Positions 3,258 through 54,583 are shown, numbered from the stretch's first letter. The stretch: DNA of 64,000 bases from a virus (IMGVR_UViG_3300027749_000039:126603-190602), one strand, 5' to 3'. Notes: generated by a model not told the origin, from the letters alone. Made by a program: numbers and translations.

Positions 3258-3327
3258 CAAGAAAAGGTAGATTAAACAAAGAAATTATTTAATTGAAACT
3301 AGTATAGATTAAATAATCGTATTGATG

Positions 3328-3379
3328 GTAAAGGTAAGCGGTTAAGCGGAAGATAGTGGTTCGAATCCACTCCTTTTCA
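3328..3379 (+). ncRNA. tRNA-like unit lacking an anticodon arm
   Basis: Acceptor GTAAAGG/CCTTTTC, perfect T arm AGTGG-TTCGAAT-CCACT, only 20 nt between them. Confidence 0.5.
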
Positions 3380-3768: not shown

Positions 3769-4647
3769 ATGGGTGCGAATTCAAAAGAATGGACAGAAAA
3801 GGAAAAAGAAATACTTTTTAAATATTTTCCGAGTATGGGTAGTAATTATTGTTCAGAATTAACAGGAAGAACAAAAAGAGCTTGTCAAGAAATGGCAAAA
3901 AAATTAAAATTGAAGAGAGATTTAGATAAGTATGAAGATAAAGAAAAATTAGAGGAGTTAGTTAAAGGTTGTAAATCATATACAGAATGTGTAATAAAAT
4001 TGGGGTTATCTCCCAGATGTTCTGGTAATTTTCAGACTATCAAAAAATATATCACAATATATAATATAGATATTTCACATTTTGAAAATGGATTTCAAAT
4101 AGGCAACAAACCTCAAAATAAGAAAGAATTATCAGAAGTTTTAATAGAAAACTCTTTTTTTAGCAGAACTCATCTTAAAGAGAGACTATATAAAGAGGAA
4201 TTAAAAAAGAAAGAATGTGAGATATGTGGAATTGGTGAAGATTGGTTTAATGGAACTAAAATAGTCCATATTTTAGACCATATAAATGGTGAGCCTTATG
4301 ATAATCGTCTTGAAAATTTAAGAATCGTTTGTCCTAATTGTAATTCAACATTAGAAACAAATTGTGTTGGGAATAAAGTTAATAAAATATATGATTCTAA
4401 AAAAGATGAATATAAAAGTGAAAAAACACATAAAAAATGTAATTGTGGTAAAATAATTTTGAAAGAAAGTAAATTTTGTTCAGAATGCAATGCCAAAAGT
4501 AAAAGAAAAATTATTAATAGACCAACATTTGAAGAATTAGTTAAGTTAATAGAAGAAAATGGTAATACTGGAACAGGTAAAATATACGGCGTTAGCGAAG
4601 CTGTCATAAGAAAATGGTTAAAACAATATAAAAATAAATTAGTATAG
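3769..4647 (+). mobile_element. HNH homing endonuclease inside tRNA cluster 1
   Basis: CEICG...LDHINGEPYDNRLENLRIVCPNCNS; C-terminal RPTFEEL..YGVSEAVIRKW HTH; N-terminal Myb-like repeat. Confidence 0.9.
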
Positions 4648-4660
4648 AATATACTAAAAT

Positions 4661-4735: not shown

Positions 4736-4745
4736 CTAATAAATT

Positions 4746-4829
4746 GGAAAGTCCTAATTAGGAGTAGTTAGCCGTTTTGAAAACGGTGAAGGTGTAATAG
4801 CCGTGGGGGTTCGAGTCCGTCACTTTCCG
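4746..4829 (+). tRNA. tRNA-Ser(TGA)
   Basis: GCCGT-TTTGAAA-ACGGT, long variable arm, G73. Confidence 0.8.
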
Positions 4830-4840
4830 CAAAATAAAAT

Positions 4841-4918
4841 ACGGGTTTCGTCTAATATTTAAGACACCTCCCGGCAAGGGAGTTAATGTTGTAAGGGTGA
4901 AAATCCTACAACCCGTGC
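4841..4918 (+). pseudogene. tRNA-like unit with unassignable anticodon loop
   Basis: Acceptor ACGGGTT/AACCCGT plus G73 (Trp-like), D stem GTCT/AGAC, loop GGCAAG (6 nt), T loop GTGAAAA. Confidence 0.45.
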
Positions 4919-4933
4919 AAAAAGATTAAAATT

Positions 4934-7136: not shown

Positions 7137-7142
7137 CTAATA

Positions 7143-7230
7143 GGAAAGTTGGCAGAGCGGTTTAATGCGCTGGCACTGAAGCCGGTGACTGGCAAAAGCC
7201 GGTCCGTGAGTTCGAATCTCATACTTTCTT
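7143..7230 (+). pseudogene. Ser-type tRNA with a 6-nt anticodon loop (ACTGAA) and U73
   Basis: Ser-like body with long variable arm; the loop is one nt short of canonical CTTGAAA. Confidence 0.6.
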
Positions 7231-7234
7231 ATAT

Positions 7235-16678: not shown

Positions 16679-16746
16679 AGTATAGTAGCTCAATTGGTAG
16701 AGCGGTGGTGATTCACAGGCAGTAGGTTCAAAACCTATCTATACAC
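16679..16746 (+). ncRNA. tRNA-like unit with shrunken anticodon arm
   Basis: Canonical D arm (GCTC-AATTGGTA-GAGC) and T arm; the anticodon arm is only 12 nt (GTGGTGATTCAC). Confidence 0.55.
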
Positions 16747-17911: not shown

Positions 17912-17994
17912 GCGAGTATAGTATAACGGAGGCGAAAGCCGTATTATGCTGGTCTTCCAAACCGGATATGAGAGTTCGATTCTCTCTACTCGCT
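17912..17994 (+). tRNA. tRNA-Gly(TCC) with an extra hairpin inserted in the D loop
   Basis: CTGGT-CTTCCAA-ACCGG; D loop contains GGC-GAAA-GCC. Confidence 0.82.
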
Positions 17995-18001
17995 CTAAAA
18001 T

Positions 18002-18075
18002 GGGTTGTATATTTTAATGATAGAATGCTGCGGGATTATAAAGCGGCGGTGTGAGACCAATTCTCATTATAACCC
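18002..18075 (+). pseudogene. tRNA-like unit with His-type G-1:C73 acceptor and an 11-nt anticodon loop
   Basis: GGTTGTA/TATAACC, GCTGC-GGGATTATAAA-GCGGC, T loop ACCAATT. Confidence 0.45.
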
Positions 18076-29989: not shown

Positions 29990-30768
29990 TTCCCTAAACT
30001 CATTTTTATTTCTATATATTTGTTATACTTTCTTTTAAGACCAAAAGTAAAGTCGGAATATAACCAATTTAAAAATTTAATAGAATTTTTTCTACCACCT
30101 ATATATAGAATAGAATGTTTATTATTACCATTTATAATTCTTCTGATAGAATATTTAATACCTAAATTAATAGATATATCTTCTAAATATTTCCAATCTT
30201 GTCCGTATGTGCTTGCAAAATATATTTGAGGTGATTTATTACTGAAGTTTATACACCCATCGCCGTCCATTATTCCTCTTAGAAAATATTTAATATCTTC
30301 CTGTTTAATCTTCATTAAATTAAAATCTGGCGAGGCTGTACTTTTATTTTCATAATTAAATGACCTAAATATATTTACAATATCTTTAGAACAGTATTGG
30401 ATACACGCAGATGTTTTTGTTCTGCCCTTTCTTAATCTTTCATTATAATAAAAATTTCCTAATTTTTCAAATATTGGTTTGATATCGTCTAAATCTTCTT
30501 TTAGTATTTCTATACCTATATTATTACCGACTAAATATCCATCAGACCATAATAATCCCATTATATAGGACACATAAGGATTATCAACTTTTTCAAATGT
30601 ATCTAAACTTGGGTAAATATATTTTTTATTATAACTCAATTTTAATTTTTTAGCTTTGTTTTTAACCATATCAATAGTAAAATTACTCAATATTTCATTT
30701 ATTTTAGTTGGTCCAATTTTGTGGTAGTTTTCTACCATGAATTTTATTTCGTGTTCTTTCCATTCCAT
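29986..30768 (-). mobile_element. LAGLIDADG homing endonuclease
   Basis: YIMGLLWSDG and YFLRGIMDGDG double motif. Confidence 0.88.
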
Positions 30769-30879
30769 AATTTATATATTATTTATGATATAGCCCCTAA
30801 TAATGTTTACACGCAAATAAAATAAATATGAAAATAATTTTGTCAATTCAAAACTTTTTCGTACTTTTGTAATCTAATT

Positions 30880-31075
30880 AAGAACATAGAAACTAGCATA
30901 GTGTAATAAACTATGTAAAAACTTTACATGCTCACAGAACGTTAAAATTTTATCATTATAACAGGTTACTTAATCGAAAGAAGATAATTGGTATAATGTA
31001 TATCTATAAGATATAATAAAATTATAACCTTTCAATCCGAAAGGCATAGACTTAGAGTGTAAAGAGTTTCAAAAA
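30880..31075 (+). ncRNA. Candidate structured ncRNA (~190 nt) with its own host-type promoter
   Basis: No ORF; nested helices AAACTTTACA/TGTAAAG-AGTTT, AGGTTA/TAACCT, CATAGT/ACTATG; two GAAA tetraloop hairpins. Confidence 0.45.
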
Positions 31076-31091
31076 TAAATCTGAAAATAAT

Positions 31092-31122
31092 TTTGCAAAT
31101 TAAAAACTTTATTGTATCTTTG
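31092..31122 (+). promoter_or_regulatory. Bacteroidota-type promoter for tRNA cluster 4
   Basis: TTTG-N19-TATCTTTG. Confidence 0.8.
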
Positions 31123-31206
31123 CAATACAATAATCAATAAAGAAACAAATAACGATAAAAAGTCCATAGAGGAAAAAAGTAGTTTAAAAATTAAATATAT
31201 AATATA

Positions 31207-31308
31207 ATGAAAAACATTAATAGAAATAATAATACCATAAATTTAGTCATAAATAACGTGAATACGTTATGCGTGATTAGAGGAGTTATGGGGTTAAGTC
31301 TATTATGA
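31207..31308 (+). CDS. Attenuator leader peptide L4: MKNINRNNNTINLVINNVNTLCVIRGVMGLSLL
   Basis: Residues 3-25 are all N/I/R/T/L/V/C, exactly the downstream tRNA set. Confidence 0.88.
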   Translation: MKNINRNNNTINLVINNVNTLCVIRGVMGLSLL

Positions 31309-31335
31309 TAATATTTCAAATATATTATAATATTT

Positions 31336-31369
31336 AATCTCAAACTCAAAAAGTTTGAGATTTTTTTTT
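31336..31369 (+). terminator. Intrinsic terminator of attenuator L4
   Basis: AATCTCAAACT-CAAAA-AGTTTGAGATT-TTTTTTT. Confidence 0.9.
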
Positions 31370-31379
31370 ATGTTAAAAT

Positions 31380-31467
31380 GGCGCAGTGATGAAACTGGTT
31401 AGTACATGCAGGACTTAAAATCCTGTGGACAGAAATGTCCGTGTCGGTTCGACTCCGACCTGCGCTA
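31380..31467 (+). tRNA. tRNA-Leu(TAA), long variable arm
   Basis: CAGGA-CTTAAAA-TCCTG; A73. Confidence 0.92.
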
Positions 31468-31474
31468 CAAAACT

Positions 31475-31548
31475 CGGCGGGTAGCTTAGACGGTAAAAGC
31501 ACGAATCTTATAAATTCGAGATAGTGGGATCGTTACCCACCCCTCCGA
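31475..31548 (+). tRNA. tRNA-Ile(TAT)
   Basis: CGAAT-CTTATAA-ATTCG. Confidence 0.85.
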
Positions 31549-31553
31549 CAAAT

Positions 31554-31626
31554 GGTTCTATCGTACAATGGATTAGTACAAGGCTCTTCTAAAGCCTTTA
31601 TGTGGGTTCGAATCCCGCTGGAACTA
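31554..31626 (+). tRNA. tRNA-Arg(TCT)
   Basis: AGGCT-CTTCTAA-AGCCT. Confidence 0.9.
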
Positions 31627-31677
31627 CAATCGTTATTAATTTTTATTAGGGAGTTCGGTTTATATAATATATAATTT

Positions 31678-32484
31678 ATGAGACATAAACAAACAGAACA
31701 AACTAAAAAGAAGTTATCAGAAATAAGAAAAAAATGGTTAGCAGATAATCCAGAAAAACATCCATGGAAAAGAAAAGATAAATTCTTATCTAAGCCTTGT
31801 GAATTTTTCAAAAAGAAATTATTGGAAAATAATTTAACTTTTTCGGAAGAACAAAACTTACTTGAAGGAAGAGCATATTCGGTAGATGTAGTTTTTTATG
31901 ATAAAATGATTGGATTTAAAATAAATGGAAATCAACATTATAATTCAGATAAAACTCTTAAAGATTATTATAAAAAAAGGAAAGAAGAGATTGAAATTTT
32001 AGGATGGAAATTATATGATATACATTATACAAAAGTTTATAATGAAAAATTTATAGAGGAAATAATAAAATTCATAAAAGAGCAAAAGGAAATTCCAAAT
32101 TTTAATTTTGAATTTTTTATAAAAAAGGTTAAAAAAATATGTAAAGATTGTGGTAAAGAAATATCATATAATAGCATAGAAAGATGTTTAAAATGTCATA
32201 ATATATCCAGAAGAACAGAAAAATATGAAGTTAATTTAAAATATAAAATAGGTGCTAATAAAAAAGAAAAATTTATAAAAAATTGTAATTGTGGTGAAAT
32301 AATATCCATAAATTCAAATAATTGTAAGGAATGTTTTGATAAAATACAAAGAAAAATAGTTGATAGACCAAGTTTAGAAATTTTATTAGAAGAGGTTAAA
32401 GATATAGGATATAGTGCGGTTGGTAGAAAATATGGAGTTAGTGATAATTCTATAAGAAAGTGGATAAAAAATTATCAAAAATAA
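31678..32484 (+). mobile_element. DUF559/Vsr-like homing endonuclease with C-terminal HTH, in tRNA cluster 4
   Basis: YSVDVVF..IGFKINGNQHY..R....EILGW; RPSLEILLEEV..VGRKYGVSDNSIRKW. Confidence 0.7.
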
Positions 32485-32488
32485 AAAT

Positions 32489-32560
32489 TGTCGTATAGCT
32501 TAGTGGGGAAGCGTCAGCAGAAGTAGCTGAAGGGCATAGGTTCAATTCCTGTTGCGACTA
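32489..32560 (+). pseudogene. tRNA-like unit, anticodon loop AGAAGTA (AAG, G33)
   Basis: TCAGC/GCTGA stem, normal D and T arms, U1xU72. Confidence 0.5.
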
Positions 32561-32567
32561 CAAATAA

Positions 32568-32639
32568 GGTTCCTTAACTCAGAGGCAGAGTGCTACTTTT
32601 ACATGGTAGAAGTCGGGATTTCAAAATTCCCAGGAACCA
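32568..32639 (+). tRNA. tRNA-Val(TAC)
   Basis: CTACT-TTTACAT-GGTAG. Confidence 0.88.
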
Positions 32640-32646
32640 CAAAAAT

Positions 32647-32718
32647 TGGAATGTAGCTCAGAGGCAGAGCAGGATCCTGTTAAGATCAAGGTCGAGATAT
32701 CGTAATTCTCCATTCCAG
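32647..32718 (+). tRNA. tRNA-Asn(GTT)
   Basis: GATC-CTGTTAA-GATC; G73. Confidence 0.85.
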
Positions 32719-32723
32719 CAAAT

Positions 32724-32795
32724 AGTCTTATAGCTCAAAGGCAGAGTGCCTGTTCGACATACAGGAGGTTGCGATATCGTAATTCGCTAAGACTA
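32724..32795 (+). tRNA. tRNA-Val(GAC), C33
   Basis: CCTGT-TCGACAT-ACAGG. Confidence 0.82.
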
Positions 32796-32804
32796 CAAAT
32801 AAAG

Positions 32805-32878
32805 GGGCGTATGGTGAAATTGGTTTATCACGTCTGACTGTTAATCAGTTATTATAGGTTCGAGTCCTATTGTGCCCG
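32805..32878 (+). tRNA. tRNA-Asn(GTT), second
   Basis: CTGA-CTGTTAA-TCAG; G73. Confidence 0.88.
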
Positions 32879-32905
32879 CTAATTAAATAAAAAAAGTAAA
32901 TAATA

Positions 32906-32984
32906 CGGAACGTACCGAGTCACACTGATAATGTGGATATTCGTAAAGGTGTTGAAAATGAGATTTCAAGATTCTCCGTTCCGA
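32906..32984 (+). ncRNA. D-armless tRNA-Ile(GAT)-like RNA with long variable region
   Basis: Perfect acceptor CGGAACG/CGTTCCG, A73, TCACA-CTGATAA-TGTGG, only 7 nt where the D arm should be. Confidence 0.6.
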
Positions 32985-32990
32985 CAAAAT

Positions 32991-33066
32991 GCCAAATTAG
33001 TATAGCGGCGATTATACCAACCTTGTAAGTTGCGAGACACCAGTTCGAGTCTGGTATTTGGCTCCA
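32991..33066 (+). tRNA. tRNA-Thr(TGT), CCA encoded
   Basis: CAAC-CTTGTAA-GTTG; GCC/GGC acceptor. Confidence 0.88.
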
Positions 33067-33100
33067 CTACTGATCAGAATCCAGTGATTCAGATCTAAAA

Positions 33101-33176
33101 CGGACTATAGCTCATTATTGGTTAGAGCGTCACGCTGATAACGTGAAGGTGGTTGGATCGAAGCCAGCTAGTCCGA
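33101..33176 (+). tRNA. tRNA-Ile(GAT)
   Basis: TCACG-CTGATAA-CGTGA. Confidence 0.9.
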
Positions 33177-33182
33177 CAAAAT

Positions 33183-33255
33183 GCTAAAGTGTCTGAATGG
33201 TTGAGGAACTTTCTTGGTATGAAAGATAATATCGGTTCGAATCCGTTCTTTAGCT
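33183..33255 (+). tRNA. tRNA-Thr(GGT)
   Basis: CTTTC-TTGGTAT-GAAAG. Confidence 0.9.
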
Positions 33256-33261
33256 CTTAAT

Positions 33262-33334
33262 GGCGCCTTGGTCGAGTGGTTATAGGCGCAGGTCTGCAAA
33301 ACCTGATACATTGGTTCAATTCCAGTAGGCGCCT
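33262..33334 (+). tRNA. tRNA-Cys(GCA)
   Basis: CAGGT-CTGCAAA-ACCTG; U73. Confidence 0.92.
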
Positions 33335-33347
33335 CAAATTAAATAAA

Positions 33348-33623
33348 ATGAAACCGATTAAAAAAACATTTCTCTTTCTTCGCCAATTAACAAAAAATAA
33401 AGGCTTAGAGATACAACTAACTTTAGGTAAATTTATGTTTGGTGGAAGACCAAACTGGTTTGTAGTAGCATTTGAAACACGTTCAAAATGTGACCATGCT
33501 GGTGTTGAGTTTCGTTTAGAATTATTAAAAATATTTTATTTTCATATTAATATCTACGATTTTAGACATTGGAATTATACAACAGATACTTATTGTGATC
33601 ACGGTGATATATCCTATAGTTAG
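33348..33623 (+). CDS. Hypothetical protein (start at 33348; the track start overlaps tRNA-Cys)
   Basis: In-frame ATG after the tRNA. Confidence 0.6.
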   Translation: MKPIKKTFLFLRQLTKNKGLEIQLTLGKFMFGGRPNWFVVAFETRSKCDHAGVEFRLELLKIFYFHINIYDFRHWNYTTDTYCDHGDISYS

Positions 33624-33640
33624 TATTTAATATATACTAA

Positions 33641-34342
33641 ATGAAATGGATAAAATCATTTAGTGAAAGTTCAAAATATAAAGAGAAGGAAAGAACTGAT
33701 TACGCTTATAAATTAAAGAAAAAATTATTACAATTTAATTTAAATTGGCAAGAACTTATTTTCTTTTTGGAAGATAATGGATTTGATACATCAAAATTAG
33801 AAGAACTAAATGTTCCATCAAATTCATTTTTAAATAAAGGTTCATTTGGTATGGTTTTTTCTTATGGTAATGATAAAGTAATTAAAGTTAGTTTTAATAA
33901 ATTTGATTATGAATTTGCTAGAAAATTAATTGGGAAAGATAATGAACACTTACCAAATGTTTATGATATAAAAAGTATTTCTAATAATGTTTTAACTATG
34001 TTTATTATAGTTATGGAAAAATGTAAACCATTGCCTCAAAGTATAAAGACATATATAAATATCGAATATAAAAATATAGGTGAGTTTTTTAGAACACAAG
34101 ATCCAGAGTATCTAATACCTACAGAAGAAGAAGATTTGGAAACTTATAGAAAATATGATTTAGGAAATCAATTTTTAAGTATGATGGAGGAGATAAGAGA
34201 ATTATTTGGATTAAATAAAGACTTAGATATACATTCAGCAAATTTTATGATGAAAGAAAATAACCTTTGTTTTATAGATATTTTTGTTCCAAAGTATCTT
34301 ACAAAATTAGAACTTTCTAAAAGAAAATCAAAAACAAAATAA
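33641..34342 (+). CDS. Protein-kinase-like fold protein with capsid-targeting-like N-terminus
   Basis: KGSFGMVF..KVIK, DLDIHSANFM catalytic loop, FID; starts MKWIKSFSES. Confidence 0.7.
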   Translation: MKWIKSFSESSKYKEKERTDYAYKLKKKLLQFNLNWQELIFFLEDNGFDTSKLEELNVPSNSFLNKGSFGMVFSYGNDKVIKVSFNKFDYEFARKLIGKDNEHLPNVYDIKSISNNVLTMFIIVMEKCKPLPQSIKTYINIEYKNIGEFFRTQDPEYLIPTEEEDLETYRKYDLGNQFLSMMEEIRELFGLNKDLDIHSANFMMKENNLCFIDIFVPKYLTKLELSKRKSKTK

Positions 34343-34348
34343 ATATTT

Positions 34349-34379
34349 TTTGTAGTTTCAAAACTTTATTGTATCTTTG
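34349..34379 (+). promoter_or_regulatory. Bacteroidota-type promoter for the Leu/Met tRNA-asnS unit
   Basis: TTTG-N19-TATCTTTG. Confidence 0.8.
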
Positions 34380-34431
34380 TGTTATAATTAAAAATAGAAA
34401 ACAGACAAACAGAATTTAATATATAAATAAT

Positions 34432-34500
34432 ATGAAAAACATCAATCTAAATATGAATTTGCTTAATCTAATGGAAACATTGGACAGGATTCTTATATAG
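34432..34500 (+). CDS. Attenuator leader peptide L5: MKNINLNMNLLNLMETLDRILI
   Basis: Leu codons CTA x2, TTG x2, CTT x2; Met x3; Asn x5. Confidence 0.88.
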   Translation: MKNINLNMNLLNLMETLDRILI

Positions 34501-34524
34501 ATAACTTTATCATAAAGTTTTTAT

Positions 34525-34558
34525 AAAATCCTGTTCACAATCTGAACAGGATTTTTTT
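34525..34558 (+). terminator. Intrinsic terminator of attenuator L5
   Basis: AAAATCCTGTTCA-CAATC-TGAACAGGATTTT-TTT. Confidence 0.9.
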
Positions 34559-34561
34559 ATT

Positions 34562-34637
34562 GGCACTCTATCCCAACAAGAGCAGAGGACTCAGCTTTAG
34601 AACCTGAGAGTTGTGGGTTCAAATCCCACGAGTGTCA
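34562..34637 (+). tRNA. tRNA-Leu(TAG) with short variable arm
   Basis: TCAGC-TTTAGAA-CCTGA (C31xC39), 5-nt variable loop, A73. Confidence 0.7.
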
Positions 34638-34697
34638 CACAACTCGAACTCTGGTAGATAAAAAATAAGGGACTGTTATGTATATAATATATACATA

Positions 34698-35531
34698 ATG
34701 GAAAATAAAAAATTTATTGAAATATGCCAAACAGCCGTAAGTATGGCTGAGGCAGCTAGAATTATAGGAATTGGATTTAATTCTTTTAAGAAAAAAGCAT
34801 TAATATTAAATTGTTATAAAACTAATCAAAATTGGAGAAAAGGTAAAACTGTTTTAAATGATGATAGAATAGAAAGTAAACATACTTTATTTTGTGAAAA
34901 TTCTTCCGCAAGAAGAGAATATATTAAAGGTTTAATTATTAAACATAATTTAATTGAATATAAATGTTTTGATTGTGGATTAAAAAATGAATGGAATGGG
35001 AAAATTTTAAACTTACAGTTAGACCATATAAATGGTGTAAAAAATGATAATAGACTTGAAAATTTAAGATTTATGTGCCCTAATTGTCATTCACAAACAG
35101 AAACATGGTGTAAAAGTAAAGGTAATTCAATAAATAATTTAGATATAGAAATCTTAATTAATACTATAAATAAGTCATTTTCTATGACTAAATTAATTGA
35201 TAAATTAGGAATCTATGATACACAAAATAATAGAAAGAAAATCAAAAAAATAATGATAGAAAATAATCTATCTTTTGAATTTGATAAACAGGAAAAGAAT
35301 AAAATAAATAGTTGTAAGTGTGGTAAATCTATTAAAAAATCAAGTAAAATGTGTTCTAAATGTTGGCAGATAGAACAAAGAAAAGTTAATAGACCTACAT
35401 ATGAGCAGTTAAAAAAAGAAGTAGAAGAAATTGGATATTCAGCAACAGGTAGAAAATATAATGTTTCTGATAATTGCATAAGAAAATGGTTAAAAGCATA
35501 TGTACCCCAATTGGCAGAGGGACACCGTTAA
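34698..35531 (+). mobile_element. HNH homing endonuclease in tRNA cluster 5
   Basis: LQLDHINGVKNDNRLENLRFMCPNCHSQT; C-terminal TGRKYNVSDNCIRKW HTH; 3' end overlaps tRNA-Leu(AAG). Confidence 0.9.
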
Positions 35532-35570
35532 GAGCGGTGATAGGTGTCGGATCGTTGCCGACTATATGCA
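35496..35570 (+). tRNA. tRNA-Leu(AAG) with short variable arm
   Basis: CACCG-TTAAGAG-CGGTG; GCATATG/TATATGC; A73. Confidence 0.75.
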
Positions 35571-35638
35571 CAAAGATTGCGCTGATGAGAATTGTAGGTG
35601 CAATTTCTAGTTGTAGAGTATTTCACAATACTCTCTCT

Positions 35639-35712
35639 ACCGAAGTGATGTAATTGGTAAACATCTTATTTTCAAAAAATAAGTTTTGAGGGATCGTAGC
35701 CCTTCTTCGGTA
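35639..35712 (+). tRNA. tRNA-Leu(CAA) with short variable arm
   Basis: TTATT-TTCAAAA-AATAA; ACCGAAG/CTTCGGT; A73. Confidence 0.75.
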
Positions 35713-35770
35713 CTATCATTGAAATAGTTGTATATTATGATAAATGGTATAGTTATGATATAATTAATAA

Positions 35771-35855
35771 GCCGCTATGAGCAGATGTGGTAATTGCGAC
35801 GGACTCATAATCCGTTTTCTGTAAGATAGTGTTGGTTCGAGTCCAACTAGCGGTA
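35771..35855 (+). tRNA. tRNA-Met(CAT), elongator-type, long variable arm (Ile2 not excluded)
   Basis: ACGGA-CTCATAA-TCCGT. Confidence 0.82.
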
Positions 35856-35910
35856 CAGACATAATAAATATAAAAAGTTATTATGATCACATAAAAGAAA
35901 ATTTATTAAA

Positions 35911-36171
35911 ATGGAAAATTTGAAAGATGTAAAGGTCGCAGACCTTGTTAGAAACGCTAAGGCAAAAATTGCTTATGTTCAAAGTGGTATAATTTATTAC
36001 CAAATTGAAAATGATACGCATGTAACTATGCTTCCGATTGATCTTAATAATGAAGATATTAAACAAGATATAGGAACTTCAAGATTAGATGCGGAATATA
36101 GTGGTATTACTTTAATGCGTTATATTAACAAAGCAATAAAATTAGGTACATTAGCGTATTATAAAAAGTAA
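35911..36171 (+). CDS. Hypothetical protein
   Basis: 86 aa track ORF. Confidence 0.6.
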   Translation: MENLKDVKVADLVRNAKAKIAYVQSGIIYYQIENDTHVTMLPIDLNNEDIKQDIGTSRLDAEYSGITLMRYINKAIKLGTLAYYKK

Positions 36172-36305
36172 ATAAAATGGAAACTATAAAAATAAAAACT
36201 GCGGGCGTCTATGGTGCAGTAATTGCACCATTCGCCTTCTATAATTAGTAATTTTTAATCGAATAAAAATTAAAAATACTAATTATAAAAATAAAAGCAG
36301 TTAAA

Positions 36306-37496
36306 ATGAAAAAAAAACAAGGATGGATTAAATCCATAAGACAATCCAAAGGATTAATATTTGTAGCAGTTACAGACGGAGCAAAAGATTTCCAAGTAAC
36401 AATAGTAGAAGCCGAATGTAAAATATACGGCGAACTAAAAGTAGGAGCTTCTTTTGAAGCACAAGGTAAAGATTCAACAACCCCAAAAGGATTATTTGAA
36501 TTTAAAGCATCTGAGTTTAAGATAATAGGTAGTTCCGATGACAGCTACCCTATACAGCCCAAGTCCCATGGTATGGATTTTCTACGTTCTATTTTAGAAT
36601 ATAGAGGAAAAACTAAACAATTTCAAGCAATTTGGAAAATTAGGCATCATTTAACACAGGCTATACATCAATTTTTTGATAGTGAAGGATTTTATCTCTA
36701 CCAAATTCCTATCATTATAGACAGCGATTGTGAGGGTGCCGGTGAAACTTTCCAAGTAAAAACTGAATGGTTAGATAGAGTTTTAACCGTATCAGGTCAG
36801 CTACATGGTGAAGTGGGTGCCATGAGTCTTGGTAAAATTTATTCATTTAGTCCATCTTTTAGAGCAGAAAAATCAGCCACCAAAAAACACTTAAGTGAGT
36901 TTTGGCATCTTGAACCAGAAATAGGATGGTATAGCATGGAAGATACTATGAGATTAGCAGAAAAATCTATAAAATTCTTTATCACATATGTATTAGAAAA
37001 ATGTGAATATGAATTTAAACAATTAGGTATAACTACTGAACATCTAACAGATGTTATAGAAAAAGAATGGAAAACTATTAAATACGAAGAAATAGTTAAA
37101 CTATTTGGTGTTAAATATGGTGAGGATATAAACTCGGAAACAGAACAGAAAATTGTAACACATTTTGGTTGCCCTGTGTTTATAACACATTATCCTGAAT
37201 CATTAAAGCCCTTTTACATGAAGAAAATAGGAGGTGTTGCTTTTTGTTTTGATTTGATTTTTGAATCAATAGGGGAATTAATTGGAGGTTCTGAGCGAGA
37301 AGATTCTTATGATAAATTAAAACAGTCTATGATAGATTCTGGTTTAGATTTAGATAAAATGGATTGGTATTTAAACACCAGAAAACACGGTTCAATTCCA
37401 CATAGTGGATATGGAATGGGATTTGAACGTCTGTTGATGTTTATTACAAAAGTTCCAAAAATACATGATGTTATACCTTTTCCTGTATCTTATTAA
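36306..37496 (+). CDS. asnS: Asparaginyl-tRNA synthetase
   Basis: OB fold, SDCEGAGETF, LTVSGQL, FRAEKS.T.KHLSEFWHLEPE, GGSERE, PHSGYGMGFER. Confidence 0.95.
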   Translation: MKKKQGWIKSIRQSKGLIFVAVTDGAKDFQVTIVEAECKIYGELKVGASFEAQGKDSTTPKGLFEFKASEFKIIGSSDDSYPIQPKSHGMDFLRSILEYRGKTKQFQAIWKIRHHLTQAIHQFFDSEGFYLYQIPIIIDSDCEGAGETFQVKTEWLDRVLTVSGQLHGEVGAMSLGKIYSFSPSFRAEKSATKKHLSEFWHLEPEIGWYSMEDTMRLAEKSIKFFITYVLEKCEYEFKQLGITTEHLTDVIEKEWKTIKYEEIVKLFGVKYGEDINSETEQKIVTHFGCPVFITHYPESLKPFYMKKIGGVAFCFDLIFESIGELIGGSEREDSYDKLKQSMIDSGLDLDKMDWYLNTRKHGSIPHSGYGMGFERLLMFITKVPKIHDVIPFPVSY

Positions 37497-37510
37497 AAAA
37501 TGGAGCGTAT

Positions 37511-38176
37511 TTAGATACGCTCCATTTTTTTTGCATATTTTTTTGTTATCAAATCAGATAAATTCCTATTTTTTAACCTCTTGGTTAAGGTAGTATAACA
37601 AATACCTAATTTTTTCGCAGTGGTTCCTATTGAATAATTATTACACATTTCAACTAATTTATCATTTTCGGGCCAATCTATTTTTGTATTTTTATCCATT
37701 AGAGTTTTATTACCATATCTATCATCTTTAAACTTATCTAACGACTTTGTTATCAATTTATGAGGACAAATACCATTATTTTGTGCTTTGCCACAATTAC
37801 AATTAAAACACATAACTTGTAAATCTTCTCTTATTGGATTTTTTCGTAAAACATAATAAAATGATTTGTTTTTATCTTCGTCTTTATAACCATCGTTGTT
37901 TATATGGTCTATGGTTAAAAACATAATTTCTTTTTCGCCGCAGCAAGAACATTGTCCACCATATTTTTTAATAACTTCGTGTTTAAGTGAAAATTGATAT
38001 TGACTTCTTTTTTCTTTTGCGAAAGGCATACTCTTATTATAATATTTCTTTTTATCTAAGCAAACACGACATCCTTTTTTATTTTCTTCTGGTTCTATAT
38101 TACCACAATAAATACATAAGCCATTTTCTTCTCTTATTTTCTTCTTTTTATTTCTTGTTTCGTTAGGGCTATACAT
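37511..38176 (-). mobile_element. HNH-type endonuclease
   Basis: CSCCG..FLTIDHINNDG..LQVMCFNCN. Confidence 0.82.
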
Positions 38177-38367
38177 AATTTCTTTTTTATTCTTTGTTTA
38201 TATTTTAATTCATTTCTTTTACACTTGATACAGCAGAACTTTTTGTTAGGTCGTCCTGTTATTTCATTTAAGCAGTTACGATAATTACATTTTCTCATAA
38301 GGTATATATTAAAAATCTGTCCTTCCTTTTAAAGATAATTTTGTAATGTCAAAACTTTATCGTATCT

Positions 38368-38793
38368 TTGTTCTATAAGTTTTTAATTATGATGTGTATA
38401 TGTTGCGATAAGAAGATTTCTCTATTATATCCAGAGATAGATTTACCTAATGGTAAATTAGAAGAAGATGTAGTTTTCAATACTAAAGAGAAAATACAAA
38501 TTGATGGCTCTCATGACGAAGAAATAACATTAGACGCTGGTTCAAAAATGTGGAATAACGGGATTGTTAATAAAGTATCAGCTGGATATGGTAGCTGTCA
38601 TGATGGTGATGAGTTTATTATCGCAATATGTGATGATTGTATTACTACAAAGAAGAGAACAGGCAATATAGCTTATATTAATAATTATATGGGTTACTCT
38701 TTACCAGGTGATGAAGATTATGAAAAATCAAGAATTGCTTGGAGACGATATAATAGGATAGACGATATATTAAATGATGAAGAAACCCAGTAA
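38368..38793 (+). CDS. Hypothetical protein ending RYNRIDDILND
   Basis: Motif family variant. Confidence 0.6.
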   Translation: MFYKFLIMMCICCDKKISLLYPEIDLPNGKLEEDVVFNTKEKIQIDGSHDEEITLDAGSKMWNNGIVNKVSAGYGSCHDGDEFIIAICDDCITTKKRTGNIAYINNYMGYSLPGDEDYEKSRIAWRRYNRIDDILNDEETQ

Positions 38794-38808
38794 AAACTGG
38801 GTTTCTTT

Positions 38809-41067
38809 TTATTTATCTAAACCGGTTCCTCTTCTAATTTTACTAAAATCTACTTTACTATCTGGATTAAATGGTAAATTAGCATCTTGATTTGCATTAT
38901 CAGTAAATATAATATATTTATAATCTGTTCCTATAATTGATAGGTTAAGTATTTTATTATGTTCTTTTTCAGGTATTATATTATTGAATAATCTAATATT
39001 AGTTATCTTAATATCTGAAGCAGGTATTGATGCATGTGTTTTTGGAGCTATATCAATAATAGTTGGTTGTATCGGTAATTCTATTTTGTATAACTGGTTT
39101 AATTTAGAAGATGTTAATTCTTCTGCATCTTCTTCGTATTCCACATTTCTCTTATAAAGATAAGCTGTTAATTTATGTAAGCGTTGATCAATATTTATAA
39201 CTAAACTATACCAAACATTTTCGGATAGAACATTTGATGTTTTGTTAGATAATTCTAATTGATATGTAGTTTCATTTATTATTGCAAATAAAGTATTACC
39301 TATCATATAAAAAACGAACCCATTATTAATATCATCAATATAATTAAAGAAAATATATGGTTCATTCATTGATATATTATTTATACTAAACCAACAATAA
39401 AATCCCATATTATCAGATGTTTTGTAGAAGAATTTAAAATTCCTATAAACAACACCTGGTGAATTAAATTGAACACTTGACATATCATAATGTGTTTTAG
39501 CTACCGTCACACTAGCATTTTCTATATTTTCTTTTTCTATATTAGCATATAATTCAACTCTTAGTGTTTCTTGTGCTTTATTAGCTACTCTTAATTGTTC
39601 TTGGTTAGCAGTAGATTTCTTATCTTGCATATTTTCAAGACCCATTAATTCTTCTAATGTAGTATTCTTAGTAAGATTATCAATAACATCTTGTATTTCT
39701 TGATTTGCGCCAATGATATTTGCTTTTTTGTTGAATTTCTTAAGTATTATTTTATAATAAACAGAATAGTTATTAAAATTTCTAATTGCCTGTGAATGCT
39801 CTATTGTATATAATTTATTTATATTACAAAACCAAATTACGTCATTTAAACCTGGTCTGCTTTGCACACCAAATGCTGATTTGAATGCATCTTTAGTTAT
39901 ATTAATTTCAAAAGATTCAAATAAGGTTAAGTCAAAATTATTTAATGAACCTGTATTATCTGGAAATTGATTATTATCCACACTAGCTTTTATTTTAGCA
40001 TCACATATATAATTTTGTACTTGATGTTCGTGGAATGTATAATCTATACCCTTTTGATCAGCGTCAGTTAATACATAAATAATATCATGTCCAAACAAAT
40101 TCGATACATCATTACTCATTTTATTAAATAAAGTTAAAGCTTGTGCTTGTTGATATGGTTGATAAAATTTAGCAATAGAATCGGCATTTGATATAGGTAA
40201 ATTAGTTGATTCAGTCGAATAATTTGGCATCAACATACTTGATTGTCCACCAGGTGGCATATTTTCTAAAGTTGTTGTATCTCCTATTATGTTTAACAAA
40301 AGGCAATTACAATTTTCTCTAACACCATATAAATTAGACTTTTGTCCATCTAATGATACATTTTGAAAATCACCAATTAAATTAATATCAAATATAGAAA
40401 CACCAGTTGACCCATTATATTTTACATAATATTCAATTTGGAAAAACCGAATTGGATTAATTCTTTCACCTATTACATTTGCTTTGGTAAATTCGGTCCA
40501 GTTATTAATTGTTCTACCATAATCTTGTGAATAACGATAGTAAATAGTTGTATTCTCAATATCGCCTTTACTTAATATTTCTATATCAGTTAATTTGAAT
40601 ACTTTATAAATATAAGGCGGTTTTATTACAACTTCGGTATTAGTTGACGATAATTTAATTGTGCTTAACCCATCGCTTATATTCCTATCTAAACTACCTT
40701 CTAGATTATAATCTAATAAAGTAATAACACCTGTATTTGAATCACCTTCTCTTATCCATTTTATATCAATGAACATTTTATATTTTGGATCAAACGGTAT
40801 AAAATTGTCAATTTCATTGTTAAGTTCTAACCAGTCTGTCCATTTTATAGCGTCTTTAGAAACTCTATATTGTGTTGTTAAATATCTATAATTATCAGAT
40901 CCGGTTATGCTGTAAGTAAATGATTTAAAGTATTTAACATTTTCCAAATTAATAAAAGATAATGAATATGAATCACCTATTTTATTAAATATAGGCGCAT
41001 TAGTTGTATTATAATTATCTGTTATGGTAATACTTCCAAGTATAGAATCTGATGATATAGTAAACAT
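38809..41067 (-). CDS. Virion protein: T4 gp14-like neck domain plus C-terminal LamG/ConA-like domain
   Basis: LFGHDIIY..FESFEINI..RPGLNDVIWF..NKLYTI resembles the neck-protein pattern; WYSLVINID..ITNIRLFN is LamG-like. Confidence 0.5.
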   Translation of the reverse strand: MFTISSDSILGSITITDNYNTTNAPIFNKIGDSYSLSFINLENVKYFKSFTYSITGSDNYRYLTTQYRVSKDAIKWTDWLELNNEIDNFIPFDPKYKMFIDIKWIREGDSNTGVITLLDYNLEGSLDRNISDGLSTIKLSSTNTEVVIKPPYIYKVFKLTDIEILSKGDIENTTIYYRYSQDYGRTINNWTEFTKANVIGERINPIRFFQIEYYVKYNGSTGVSIFDINLIGDFQNVSLDGQKSNLYGVRENCNCLLLNIIGDTTTLENMPPGGQSSMLMPNYSTESTNLPISNADSIAKFYQPYQQAQALTLFNKMSNDVSNLFGHDIIYVLTDADQKGIDYTFHEHQVQNYICDAKIKASVDNNQFPDNTGSLNNFDLTLFESFEINITKDAFKSAFGVQSRPGLNDVIWFCNINKLYTIEHSQAIRNFNNYSVYYKIILKKFNKKANIIGANQEIQDVIDNLTKNTTLEELMGLENMQDKKSTANQEQLRVANKAQETLRVELYANIEKENIENASVTVAKTHYDMSSVQFNSPGVVYRNFKFFYKTSDNMGFYCWFSINNISMNEPYIFFNYIDDINNGFVFYMIGNTLFAIINETTYQLELSNKTSNVLSENVWYSLVINIDQRLHKLTAYLYKRNVEYEEDAEELTSSKLNQLYKIELPIQPTIIDIAPKTHASIPASDIKITNIRLFNNIIPEKEHNKILNLSIIGTDYKYIIFTDNANQDANLPFNPDSKVDFSKIRRGTGLDK

Positions 41068-44911: not shown

Positions 44912-44984
44912 CGAGTATGAAGTGTAACCAGGTTGCACACGAATTTTGGGAATTCGTAGAGACGTTCGAATCGTACATGCTCGA
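44912..44984 (+). tRNA. tRNA-Pro(TGG)
   Basis: CGAAT-TTTGGGA-ATTCG; C1:G72, A73; weak T stem. Confidence 0.8.
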
Positions 44985-45037
44985 CAAAAAATCACTGCTT
45001 CGATTAAACTTTCTCCGACAATTTTAATATATATCTT

Positions 45038-52129: not shown

Positions 52130-52684
52130 ATGATTTTATATACCTTACAAGAGGAATTTAAGTTTCTTGAGTTTCAAGAAACAGGTGTGTTAAAAGCACA
52201 TCCTGACATTATATGCGATGATAGTTTCAATAGAGCCTATGAGTGGATAGAAAGTAAGATGAATACATTACTACCTGTATCTGACATGTTATGTAAACAT
52301 CCTATGTGGGCATGGTATAAATATGGTGGTAAAAGAAAACCAGATTTACGAAAAAAACACCTTAACAAATGTGATATATTCTATCGAATTGAGATTGAAA
52401 TTGATGATAGCAAAGTTCTTTTAACAGATTTTGATAATTGGCATTTAGTTTTAAATGCTGATAAAAGGGATATTAAAGAAGAACATACTATATTTGATAT
52501 AGAAGAAGGTGATGATATATCATCTTATATTAAGGAAGGTTTCTTTGTCGAAGACAATAAATTAAAGTATGATTGGAATAATATAATTTTAGATAAAAAT
52601 TCTAATAAGAAATATATTCAAGCTACATTTTGGTATGTTACATTTGATCAAGTAAAATCTTATACAAAACATAAAAGCCGCTAA
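52130..52684 (+). CDS. DUF3841-like protein
   Basis: AYEW..KM...HPMWAW..KPDLR..VLLTDFDNWHLVLN..IQATFW. Confidence 0.7.
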   Translation: MILYTLQEEFKFLEFQETGVLKAHPDIICDDSFNRAYEWIESKMNTLLPVSDMLCKHPMWAWYKYGGKRKPDLRKKHLNKCDIFYRIEIEIDDSKVLLTDFDNWHLVLNADKRDIKEEHTIFDIEEGDDISSYIKEGFFVEDNKLKYDWNNIILDKNSNKKYIQATFWYVTFDQVKSYTKHKSR

Positions 52685-52701
52685 AATTAGCGGCTTTTAT
52701 G

Positions 52702-53292
52702 TTATATTCTAACGTTTGCTGTGACTGTTGAACTAACACCTACTCCATTTGAAGCATTAACGCTTACTGAGTAAGTTGAACCGGGTGAACAGTTTGCTAA
52801 TGTTAATGTATATGTGTTATTTAAAGTTCTTATATTAGTATTTTGATAAGGATTATATTGATTACTTCCAGCATCTTGCGTATTATATATTGGTGAACTA
52901 TCTTTAGTAGACGTTACGTTATATCTCGAAGAACCAGTAGCTGCTGTCCATGTGTAAGTTATATTAAAAGAACCAACTCCATTCGATGCTGATATGCCTG
53001 TAATTGTTATATTGGAAGGTGTTGCAAAATAAAAACTTCTATTAGTCCAAGAAGATTCAAATGCACCCGGTATGTTATTTGACCAATCAACATATTGGAC
53101 ATTACCTATATAATACTGTTTTTTTATTGAAAAAGCATTTGTAGTATCGGAAGTTCCGGGTGTAGAATATCCATAATACGATATTGTAGTTCCGATTCCC
53201 AATGAACCACCAGCACCTGCGGCAGTACCAGACGCATCGTATCTGGTATATAGTGTATTTAAATCAAAATAAATTTGTGTTTGTGAAGGCAT
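52702..53292 (-). CDS. Putative virion protein with C-terminal fibronectin type III-like domain
   Basis: Ser/Thr-rich; TPSNIT..TWT..YNV..PGSTYSVSVNASNGVG. Confidence 0.6.
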   Translation of the reverse strand: MPSQTQIYFDLNTLYTRYDASGTAAGAGGSLGIGTTISYYGYSTPGTSDTTNAFSIKKQYYIGNVQYVDWSNNIPGAFESSWTNRSFYFATPSNITITGISASNGVGSFNITYTWTAATGSSRYNVTSTKDSSPIYNTQDAGSNQYNPYQNTNIRTLNNTYTLTLANCSPGSTYSVSVNASNGVGVSSTVTANVRI

Positions 53293-54369: not shown

Positions 54370-54583
54370 TAATTTTCCATTCCCATTTAAGGGATTATGC
54401 AAAAGTTTAGCAATAAAACGGTTTAGTCAGCAACATTTCAAAACTGCTATTAGATTGAGTGCTAAATTATCCGCAAAAGAATTTGCCACTAAAGAAGAAA
54501 GAACTAGAGTAGAGCATCTTATATTTGTGCATCTTAATGCCGCTAGAAGAGCTTTTAAATTAAAAAAGAAAAAGAAAAAATGA
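54362..54583 (+). CDS. Hypothetical basic protein
   Basis: Coupled ORF. Confidence 0.5.
   Translation: MIDNFPFPFKGLCKSLAIKRFSQQHFKTAIRLSAKLSAKEFATKEERTRVEHLIFVHLNAARRAFKLKKKKKK

Follow-up and report, generated by a model that had tools for sequence, protein, structure and literature searches.

Do the tRNA genes carried by very large phages possess a regulatory leader of their own? The question is raised by a locus found in a stretch of viral DNA of 64,000 nucleotides (IMGVR_UViG_3300027749_000039:126603-190602, hereafter referred to as the window), which makes up the end of a virus contig from IMG/VR (190.6 kb; estimated completeness, 31%). At position 34432 of the window begins a short open reading frame (ORF) followed by an intrinsic terminator, three tRNA-Leu genes, a tRNA-Met gene and, further downstream, asnS, which encodes an asparaginyl-tRNA synthetase (AsnRS). 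An initial annotation, made from the sequence alone, had interpreted this ORF as a Leu/Met/Asn leader that controls the tRNA genes and asnS by attenuation, and the present analysis supports the attenuator reading by the architecture of the locus, its codon statistics, its recurrence in this and two distant genomes, and compensatory changes found in five relatives. With fair probability, the locus represents a ribosome-mediated transcription attenuator of the trp/ilv type, governing tRNAs together with asnS in a huge Bacteroidetes-infecting phage; the three tRNA-Leu, tRNA-Met and, likely, AsnRS would probably be made only when the matching codons are read slowly.

With respect to its codons, the leader corresponds closely to the genes that it precedes. 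As had been noticed initially, the CTA codons (6 and 13), TTG codons (10 and 17) and CTT codons (11 and 21) fit the anticodons TAG, CAA and AAG of the three downstream tRNA-Leu, and two internal ATG codons (8 and 14) match tRNA-Met(CAT). Taking the 102 long ORFs of the contig as the codon background, TTA accounts for 67% of the Leu codons and CTA, TTG and CTT for 9-11% each; none of the six Leu codons of the leader is TTA (P = 1.3e-3), and the four tRNAs of the unit can read 8 of the 21 leader codons that follow the start codon, where 4% would be expected (binomial P = 1.6e-6). The leader also contains, as stated in the initial annotation, five Asn codons (3, 5, 7, 9 and 12), the only type of control codon deprived of a tRNA gene in the unit: ARAGORN and Rfam detect no tRNA-Asn gene within it, and it is asnS that closes the unit. 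Only codons 3-14 are able to sense: the second TTG (codon 17) lies partly within the antiterminator strand and the second CTT (codon 21) just past it, and neither can serve as a sensor.

The terminator located at 34526-34554 consists of a stem of 12-13 bp with a loop of 5 nt, followed by a U-tract. The U-tract ends at 34560 and tRNA-Leu(TAG) starts at 34562, one base further on, which leaves no space for another promoter, so that this gene can be transcribed only by read-through. The 11-bp helix previously pointed out is readily found again, 34481-34491 pairing with 34527-34537 by means of ten Watson-Crick pairs and one G-U pair, and the segment 34527-34537 doubles as the 5' arm of the terminator. 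Of seven helices of this kind scored across the window, the antiterminator duplex (-14.8 kcal/mol; z = -4.8, p = 0.002 versus dinucleotide shuffles of the leader) is the strongest, in agreement with its earlier description as the clearest antiterminator of the window. In the minimum free energy (MFE) structure of the free RNA (34388-34561), the segment 34455-34472 pairs with 34477-34491 and the terminator is kept. When a ribosome footprint at A-site codons 11-13 of the window leader is masked from folding, the antiterminator displaces the terminator, which forms again with the ribosome at the stop codon. Similarly, according to a nascent-RNA proxy, which considers the transcript prior to synthesis of the 3' arm, a ribosome located anywhere in codons 2-14 results in capture of the 5' arm, whereas the arm is left unpaired from codon 15 onward; unlike the MFE structure, with its 1:2 pairing and its terminator, this proxy still forms the antiterminator when translation is omitted. 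Both folding approaches serve as crude support only.

The position of the leader with respect to the hairpin also informs on the polarity of the switch. In a coupled attenuator of the pyrBI/pyrE type, a ribosome close behind the polymerase would keep the terminator hairpin from forming, and the polarity would be opposite, fast translation leading to read-through and stalling to termination. However, the leader stop codon lies 25 nt before the hairpin (19-33 nt across the 15 units considered below) and a terminating ribosome falls short of it; an ORF that never reaches the hairpin speaks against a pyrBI-type device and for a polarity in which stalling gives read-through. In addition, a significant and covarying antiterminator occurs at the ORF end in all units, and there is no evident logic in producing tRNAs only when they are already plentiful. 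A device of the pyrBI/pyrE type is therefore regarded as very unlikely.

According to the attenuation mechanism proposed here, the host RNA polymerase would start at the promoter 34349-34379 and transcribe the 22-codon leader. Upon fast reading of codons 3-14, the leading ribosome would reach the stop codon and cover the segment 34481-34491, allowing the terminator 34526-34554 to form, and transcription would stop one base before tRNA-Leu(TAG). When aminoacyl-tRNAs are scarce, the ribosome would stall within the control block and leave 34481-34491 available for pairing with the terminator's 5' arm; once the antiterminator is formed, the polymerase would continue into tRNA-Leu(TAG), tRNA-Leu(AAG), tRNA-Leu(CAA), tRNA-Met, an 86-codon ORF and asnS. 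The Leu and Met codons would thus sense a shortage of the isoacceptors that the unit itself supplies, and the Asn codons a shortage of charged tRNA-Asn, to which the answer of the unit would be AsnRS.

The same organization recurs throughout the window, in which seven further tRNA arrays are headed by a promoter, a short ORF starting with Met-Lys and a terminator, in this order. A tRNA gene follows 6-30 nt after the terminator where a terminator is present, and each leader is rich in the residues of its own array (Table 1). Shuffling the pairs of leaders and arrays gives p = 1.5e-4 for the match observed in the window and p = 5e-5 for the eight units of LR745206 (LR745206.1, a 634-kb 'uncultured phage'), which is the nearest GenBank record. 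The same pattern of leaders and arrays occurs in a third genome, LR756502, and both LR745206 and LR756502 are distant phages of 630-640 kb. The Pro codons of the Asp-rich leader had no partner among the tRNAs found by ARAGORN; Rfam then gave a tRNA-Pro(TGG) at 44913-44983, as the attenuator model predicts. A blind scan of the 190-kb contig yields 37 terminators on the + strand, six of which directly precede a tRNA gene and have their upstream 120 nt outside long ORFs; all six belong to such cassettes. The Gln cassette corresponds to a seventh tRNA-preceding terminator, most of the upstream 120 nt being covered in this case by the end of a long ORF. Moreover, an antiterminator-type complement to the 5' arm of the terminator exists in each of the 15 terminator-bearing units (7 in the window and 8 in LR745206; Fisher p = 2.4e-8), and the end of the segment never lies more than 26 nt upstream or 8 nt downstream of the stop codon.

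Orthologous leaders offer an independent view of the same locus. Exact AsnRS peptides gave no close relative among viral contigs, and relatives were obtained by a protein search and by contig look-ups; AsnRS has thousands of relatives as a protein, and the orthologue set retained consists of five metagenomic contigs (L015-L019) with AsnRS 66-70% identical to that of the window. All five display the same leader and terminator, followed by tRNA-Leu(TAG), tRNA-Leu(AAG) and tRNA-Leu(CAA), sometimes with a second tRNA-Leu(TAG). Behind this array, three of them have a tRNA-Met, called by ARAGORN only when the threshold is relaxed; tRNA-Arg(CCT), the counterpart of the 86-codon ORF and finally asnS are found in all five. 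Over leader codons 1-14, four relatives are identical to the window at 37-39 of the 42 nt (88-93%), as compared to 69-74% for asnS; the leader of the fifth contains a one-codon insertion in the control block. Where the residue is the same, the codon is also the same in nine cases out of ten in the leader, versus 54-66% in asnS. All five Asn codons, the CTT codon 11 and the CTA codon 13 are invariant in the six genomes, and the second half of the peptide varies.

The antiterminator of each relative is significant (p = 0.002-0.017) and ends 3-10 nt before the stop codon. Paired changes were read by hand from the anchored arms. In L018, where C replaces T in the shared 5' arm, the antiterminator strand and the 3' arm each carry a compensating A-to-G change; L019 has an A-to-G change that is compensated by T-to-C in the 3' arm and leaves a G-U pair in the antiterminator. 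Two inner positions of the terminator are changed on both sides in L015 and L019, in which the antiterminator has moved outward by four pairs. Codon 4 is AGG in the five relatives, all of which possess tRNA-Arg(CCT), and ATC in the window, the unit of which is devoid of this tRNA; judging from such comparisons, the leader is tracking its tRNA cargo.

Two more trivial explanations can be weighed against these results. The hairpin could be an ordinary gene-end terminator or insulator accompanied by a chance ORF, the tRNAs being transcribed from another promoter or by constitutive leakage. Short ORFs abound in AT-rich DNA and the gene upstream of the leader ends at 34342, but a strong promoter motif separates this gene from the ORF and the first tRNA begins immediately past the U-tract. 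Codon statistics and permutation tests speak against chance, the ORF is better conserved than asnS at the nucleotide level, and such ORFs are carried by all six of the above tRNA-preceding terminators of the blind scan as well as by the Gln one, which together make this explanation highly improbable. Alternatively, the ORF could encode a functional micro-protein unrelated to the control of the array, as its 14 N-terminal residues are conserved. However, paralogous leaders of the same genome differ wholly in composition, each of them tracking its own array, the conservation extends to synonymous rare codons, and the C-terminal half varies freely provided that the RNA pairing is kept; a micro-protein is extremely improbable.

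The place of asnS in the unit deserves a separate discussion. The initial annotation had put this gene under the control of the attenuator, a claim that is retained as plausible on comparative grounds, and not as proven, co-transcription over 1.8 kb being deduced from a lack of terminators and recognisable promoters. Terminator scans detect no + strand terminator between 34555 and 37497, and neither a terminator nor a known promoter motif occurs between 34561 and 36305 or in the equivalent region of the five relatives, asnS forming the end of a co-directional, terminator-free block in the six genomes. Both promoter motifs listed in Table 1 are absent before asnS and before the 86-codon ORF, while other genes of the region carry them. 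Asn represents 24% of the residues of the leader, as compared to 18.7% in six leaders of units containing tRNA-Asn or asnS and 8.6%, the proteome background, in 20 leaders of units without an Asn gene. In relatives where asnS stands apart from the arrays (LR745206 and L021), the gene possesses a promoter of its own and is directly preceded by a dedicated Asn-rich leader and terminator (L009 3885-3986 for LR745206, and L021 8861-8970). Similarly, an Asp-rich leader with a terminator directly precedes the gene for a non-discriminating AspRS in LR756502 (L012 19795-19911). Among the genomes examined, no lineage has this leader without a downstream asnS. Provided that the attenuator is real, these comparisons make it rather likely that asnS falls under its control.

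A number of observations nevertheless weigh against the proposed reading. With respect to asnS, the gene is located far downstream of the leader, from 1.8 kb in the window to 3.8 kb in L017, and a homing-endonuclease gene with its own upstream motif stands in between. A conserved ORF of 23-25 codons ending with Tyr-Asn occurs just before asnS (36177-36290; also in L013, L016, L017 and L018); it contains a hairpin (36204-36236) in which three pairs show compensatory changes, a second hairpin, composed of A and U alone and lacking a U-tract, comes next, and the whole may constitute a second, different control element of asnS. In the closest relative, the AsnRS of which is 90% identical, a different gene precedes asnS. 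In addition, the Met-Asn-Leu-Asn-Met start of the leader is common to the leaders of the big arrays of LR745206 and LR756502, which hold tRNA-Asn, and the Asn codons may be a relic of an earlier Asn+Leu leader that headed the array before it was divided.

All of these but the distance and the endonuclease gene favor an alternative in which the same attenuator governs the tRNA array only. The Asn codons would then be an ancestral legacy, or be kept for the structure of region 1, which overlaps them in the predicted 1:2 pairing, and asnS would depend on an unrecognised promoter of its own or on the small ORF and hairpin at 36177-36290. Against this restriction, the five Asn codons have remained invariant in six genomes despite the divergence of the second half of the leader, and leaders unrelated to Asn do not exceed the proteome level in Asn. 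No terminator or known promoter motif interrupts the way from the array to asnS in the six genomes, and an asnS that is separated from the array receives its own Asn-rich leader in relatives. Control of the array alone is considered rather unlikely.

Other adverse points concern the attenuator itself. Under equilibrium folding with a masked ribosome, four of the six orthologues, namely the window and three relatives, switch cleanly, but L016 and L019 do not; the nascent-RNA proxy gives a clean result for the window alone and is ambiguous in the AU-rich relatives. One TTA codon occurs in the leader of each of four relatives, the arrays of which have no tRNA-Leu(TAA). The Leu identity of the three window tRNAs, devoid of a long variable arm, rests on their anticodons. 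Finally, no RNA run appears among the public sequencing runs listed with DNA of this phage.

Leaders able to sense more than one amino acid are known from enterobacteria, e.g., those of ilvGMEDA (Ile/Val/Leu) and thr (Thr/Ile), besides the trp, his, leu and pheA leaders, and Rfam contains several models of amino-acid operon leaders (RF00512, RF00513, RF00514, RF00506 and RF01859). The phage unit resembles these leaders by its promoter, its short ORF rich in sensor codons, its intrinsic terminator and an exclusive antiterminator located at the end of the ORF, as well as by the sensing of several kinds of codons within a single leader and possibly by the predicted 1:2 pairing. It differs from them by its targets, which consist of tRNA genes, an HNH gene, an ORF and a synthetase gene instead of biosynthetic enzymes, and by the sensing of synonymous codons and isoacceptors, rare Leu codons being used and TTA avoided. 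The element is, moreover, phage-borne, and the Rfam leader families (Leu, His, Trp, Thr and Phe) give no match at E <= 1 in the region 30000-40000. The only Phe_leader match of the window, at 52610-52703 (30.5 bits versus a gathering threshold of 55), corresponds to a gene-end terminator and was rejected.

Two other systems control aminoacyl-tRNA synthetase genes in a comparable manner. In Escherichia coli, the Phe-rich leader of pheM-pheST controls phenylalanyl-tRNA synthetase by transcription attenuation. Its direct analogues are the above-mentioned Asn leaders preceding asnS in LR745206 and L021, and the Asp leader preceding AspRS in LR756502; the window differs in that the synthetase gene, located behind four tRNAs and two ORFs, shares its sensor with them and is presumably co-transcribed. 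The T-box riboswitches of Firmicutes, located before aminoacyl-tRNA synthetase genes, directly bind uncharged tRNA independently of translation. They have in common with the window element that the state of a specific tRNA is sensed and that a choice between terminator and antiterminator is made before genes of the translation apparatus. Unlike them, the window element contains a leader ORF, presumably translated, and Rfam scans of the window give no match to the T-box (RF00230).

The genes for tRNAs are usually taken to follow growth-rate and stringent control, and simple temporal promoters are generally assumed to drive the tRNA arrays of phages. The type of switch described here is known, and the novelty would consist in attenuation being applied to tRNA genes and a charging enzyme in a virus. 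By its clustered tRNA genes interspersed with homing endonucleases, the locus resembles the tRNA arrays of T4, T5 and huge phages. A full-text literature search did not bring up any description of tRNA genes, whether of phages or of cells, being subject to leader-peptide attenuation, and no regulatory leader has been reported for the tRNA arrays of large phages; the words 'attenuat' and 'leader' do not occur in the account of huge phages (PMC7162821), which mentions tRNA synthetases in the genomes of >600 kb predicted to infect Bacteroidetes. Leader attenuators of the E. coli tRNA genes pheU and pheV, considered as a possible precedent, are not supported by the literature, these genes being monocistronic with leaders of 3-4 nt (PMC7049720).

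Beyond the single unit, the cassettes could tentatively be regarded as nodes of a phage-wide, codon-resolved network supplying tRNAs on demand, along with several synthetases, a possibility held to be slightly less than even. Transcription of every tRNA array, and of several synthetase genes, would take place only upon the slowing of ribosomes on exactly those codons that each of them serves, and the present node would merge the shortage of three rare-codon Leu isoacceptors and tRNA-Met with that of charged tRNA-Asn in one sensor. The leaders would be rewritten upon each change of tRNA cargo, as exemplified by the AGG codon and tRNA-Arg(CCT). Codon demand would thus set the supply of both the cognate tRNA and the charging enzyme. 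Such a network would sustain translation when the tRNA pool of the host mismatches the AT-rich codon usage of the phage, and would be of benefit when host defences deplete or cleave tRNAs. If true, attenuation of this kind would represent a feedback mechanism for tRNA homeostasis during infection and offer a reason for the near-complete tRNA sets of huge phages; leader sequences would predict the tRNA cargo, including tRNAs overlooked by the finders, and could provide compact codon-specific sensors for synthetic biology.

Table 1. Coordinates of the features composing the attenuated unit, and of the leaders heading the seven other tRNA arrays of the window.
Feature	Position	Strand	Basis or remark
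Bacteroidetes-type promoter (TTTG, 19 nt, GTAnnTTTG)	34349-34379	+	Pattern match; copies before other tRNA cassettes
TAATATATA motif just 5' of the leader start codon	34417-34425	+	Invariant in six orthologous leaders
Leader ORF, 22 codons, TAG stop	34432-34500	+	Conserved in L015-L019
Control block, codons 3-14; codons 5-14 solely Asn, Leu (CTA, TTG, CTT, CTA) and Met	34438-34473	+	
Predicted region 1, anti-antiterminator pairing with region 2 in untranslated RNA	34455-34472	+	MFE of the full leader
Region 2, antiterminator 5' strand, within codons 17-20	34481-34491	+	Ends 6 nt before the stop codon
Region 3, terminator 5' arm, common to both helices	34526-34537	+	
Region 4, terminator 3' arm (34543-34554) and U-tract	34543-34560	+	Hairpin of -14.4 kcal/mol
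tRNA-Leu(TAG), reads CTA	34562-34638	+	ARAGORN; Rfam tRNA, 41.4 bits
HNH homing-endonuclease gene inserted in the array	34698-35531	+	Weak Pfam HNH and HNH_3 matches, both slightly under curated cut-offs
tRNA-Leu(AAG), reads CTT	35496-35571	+	ARAGORN; Rfam, 32.1 bits, barely above cut-off
tRNA-Leu(CAA), reads TTG	35639-35713	+	ARAGORN, Rfam
tRNA-Met(CAT), long variable arm	35771-35856	+	ARAGORN, Rfam
86-codon ORF, no family match	35911-36171	+	DNA homology adjoining asnS in L015-L019
Conserved 23-codon ORF with covarying hairpin (36204-36236)	36177-36248	+	
asnS, asparaginyl-tRNA synthetase	36306-37496	+	NCBIfam equivalogs: NF003037, 417.9 bits (cut-off 414); TIGR00457, 386.7 (cut-off 342.6)
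First terminator after the attenuator; closes the unit and faces a convergent gene	37498-37527		
His/Phe/Trp-rich leader	3030-3119		Codons track own array
Lys-rich leader	4934-4969		Codons track own array; no clear terminator
Ser/Arg-rich leader	6808-6864		Codons track own array
Tyr/Glu/Gly/Ala-rich leader	16060-16158		Codons track own array
Leu-TTA/Ile/Arg/Val/Asn/Thr/Cys-rich leader	31207-31308		Codons track own array
Asp/Pro/Gln-rich leader	44484-44579		Codons track own array
Gln-rich leader	45917-45967		Codons track own array

The tRNAs of the unit are atypical; the three tRNA-Leu measure 75-77 nt, and some of their orthologues 81-91 nt. The HNH gene inserted among them shows DNA matches to annotated HNH genes of other phages and is not found in the orthologous array of L016; the end of its ORF overlaps the first 36 nt of tRNA-Leu(AAG). 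The leaders located at 31207-31308 and 34432-34500 resemble the two halves of one long leader (L010 47701-47817 and L024 29159-29263), which heads an undivided array of 15-19 tRNAs in LR745206 and LR756502; this resemblance suggests that the splitting of the array was accompanied by duplication and re-tuning of the cassette.

The host to which the proposed mechanism refers is indicated by several features. For the genomes of >634 kb, to which LR745206.1 belongs, a Bacteroidetes host was predicted by Al-Shayeb et al. 2020 (PMC7162821). Against an expectation of 0.32, the promoter pattern of Bacteroidetes (TTTG, 18-20 nt, GTAnnTTTG) occurs 17 times in the window, exclusively on the + strand, an abundance that agrees with the predicted Bacteroidetes host. 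The window has a G+C content of about 28% and contains 45 tRNA genes according to ARAGORN, with several more detected by Rfam. DNA of the phage is present in freshwater and lake metagenomes, and DNA contigs from four lake metagenomes reveal the presence of the locus along with variants. One such contig (run X9), 99% like the window, exhibits gaps of one base each in the two arms and in the loop of the terminator (34534-34552) and may be a natural variant that retains the hairpin.

The TAATATATA motif at 34417-34425 is possibly a second promoter, of a phage type, or an initiation signal. Similar motifs occur within 35 nt upstream of 63 of the 222 long ORFs of the contig, versus a background of 1.7%, with a sharp peak in their spacing, and in 31 of these 63 ORFs the motif ends 4 nt before the ATG; other examples are located at 34685-34693, 31665-31673, 33628-33636 and 45025-45033. 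In general, these motifs may serve as a phage-specific promoter yielding near-leaderless mRNAs, or as a translation-initiation signal. The orthologous leader of L015 possesses the TAATATATA-like motif and lacks the Bacteroidetes-type promoter.

A tRNA with the anticodon CTA, of the amber suppressor type, occurs at 54412-54485 of the 190.6-kb contig, outside the window. A recoding of TAG was considered and rejected: reading TAG as sense adds only 4% of ORF cover, and the standard code was kept. TAG is the stop codon of 9 of the 186 long ORFs of the contig and of the leader at 34432-34500 as well, the suppression of which would extend the ORF by four codons, up to 34515.

Besides the tRNA-Pro at 44913-44983, tRNAs missed by ARAGORN and recovered by Rfam occur at 16679-16746, 17912-17994, 18003-18075 and 3261-3379; the one at 17912-17994 resembles tRNA-Gly(TCC) with an insertion, and that at 3261-3379 contains a long insertion. 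At 7142-7231, an anticodon of four bases is called by ARAGORN. The interval separating tRNA-Trp from the Lys leader contains two tRNA-like structures (4745-4829 and approximately 4840-4925), one of which weakly matches the tRNA-Sec model (25 bits, below the cut-off). In addition to the gene at 34698-35531, HNH-type homing endonucleases are inserted in the tRNA arrays of the window at 31678-32484 and approximately 3770-4650.

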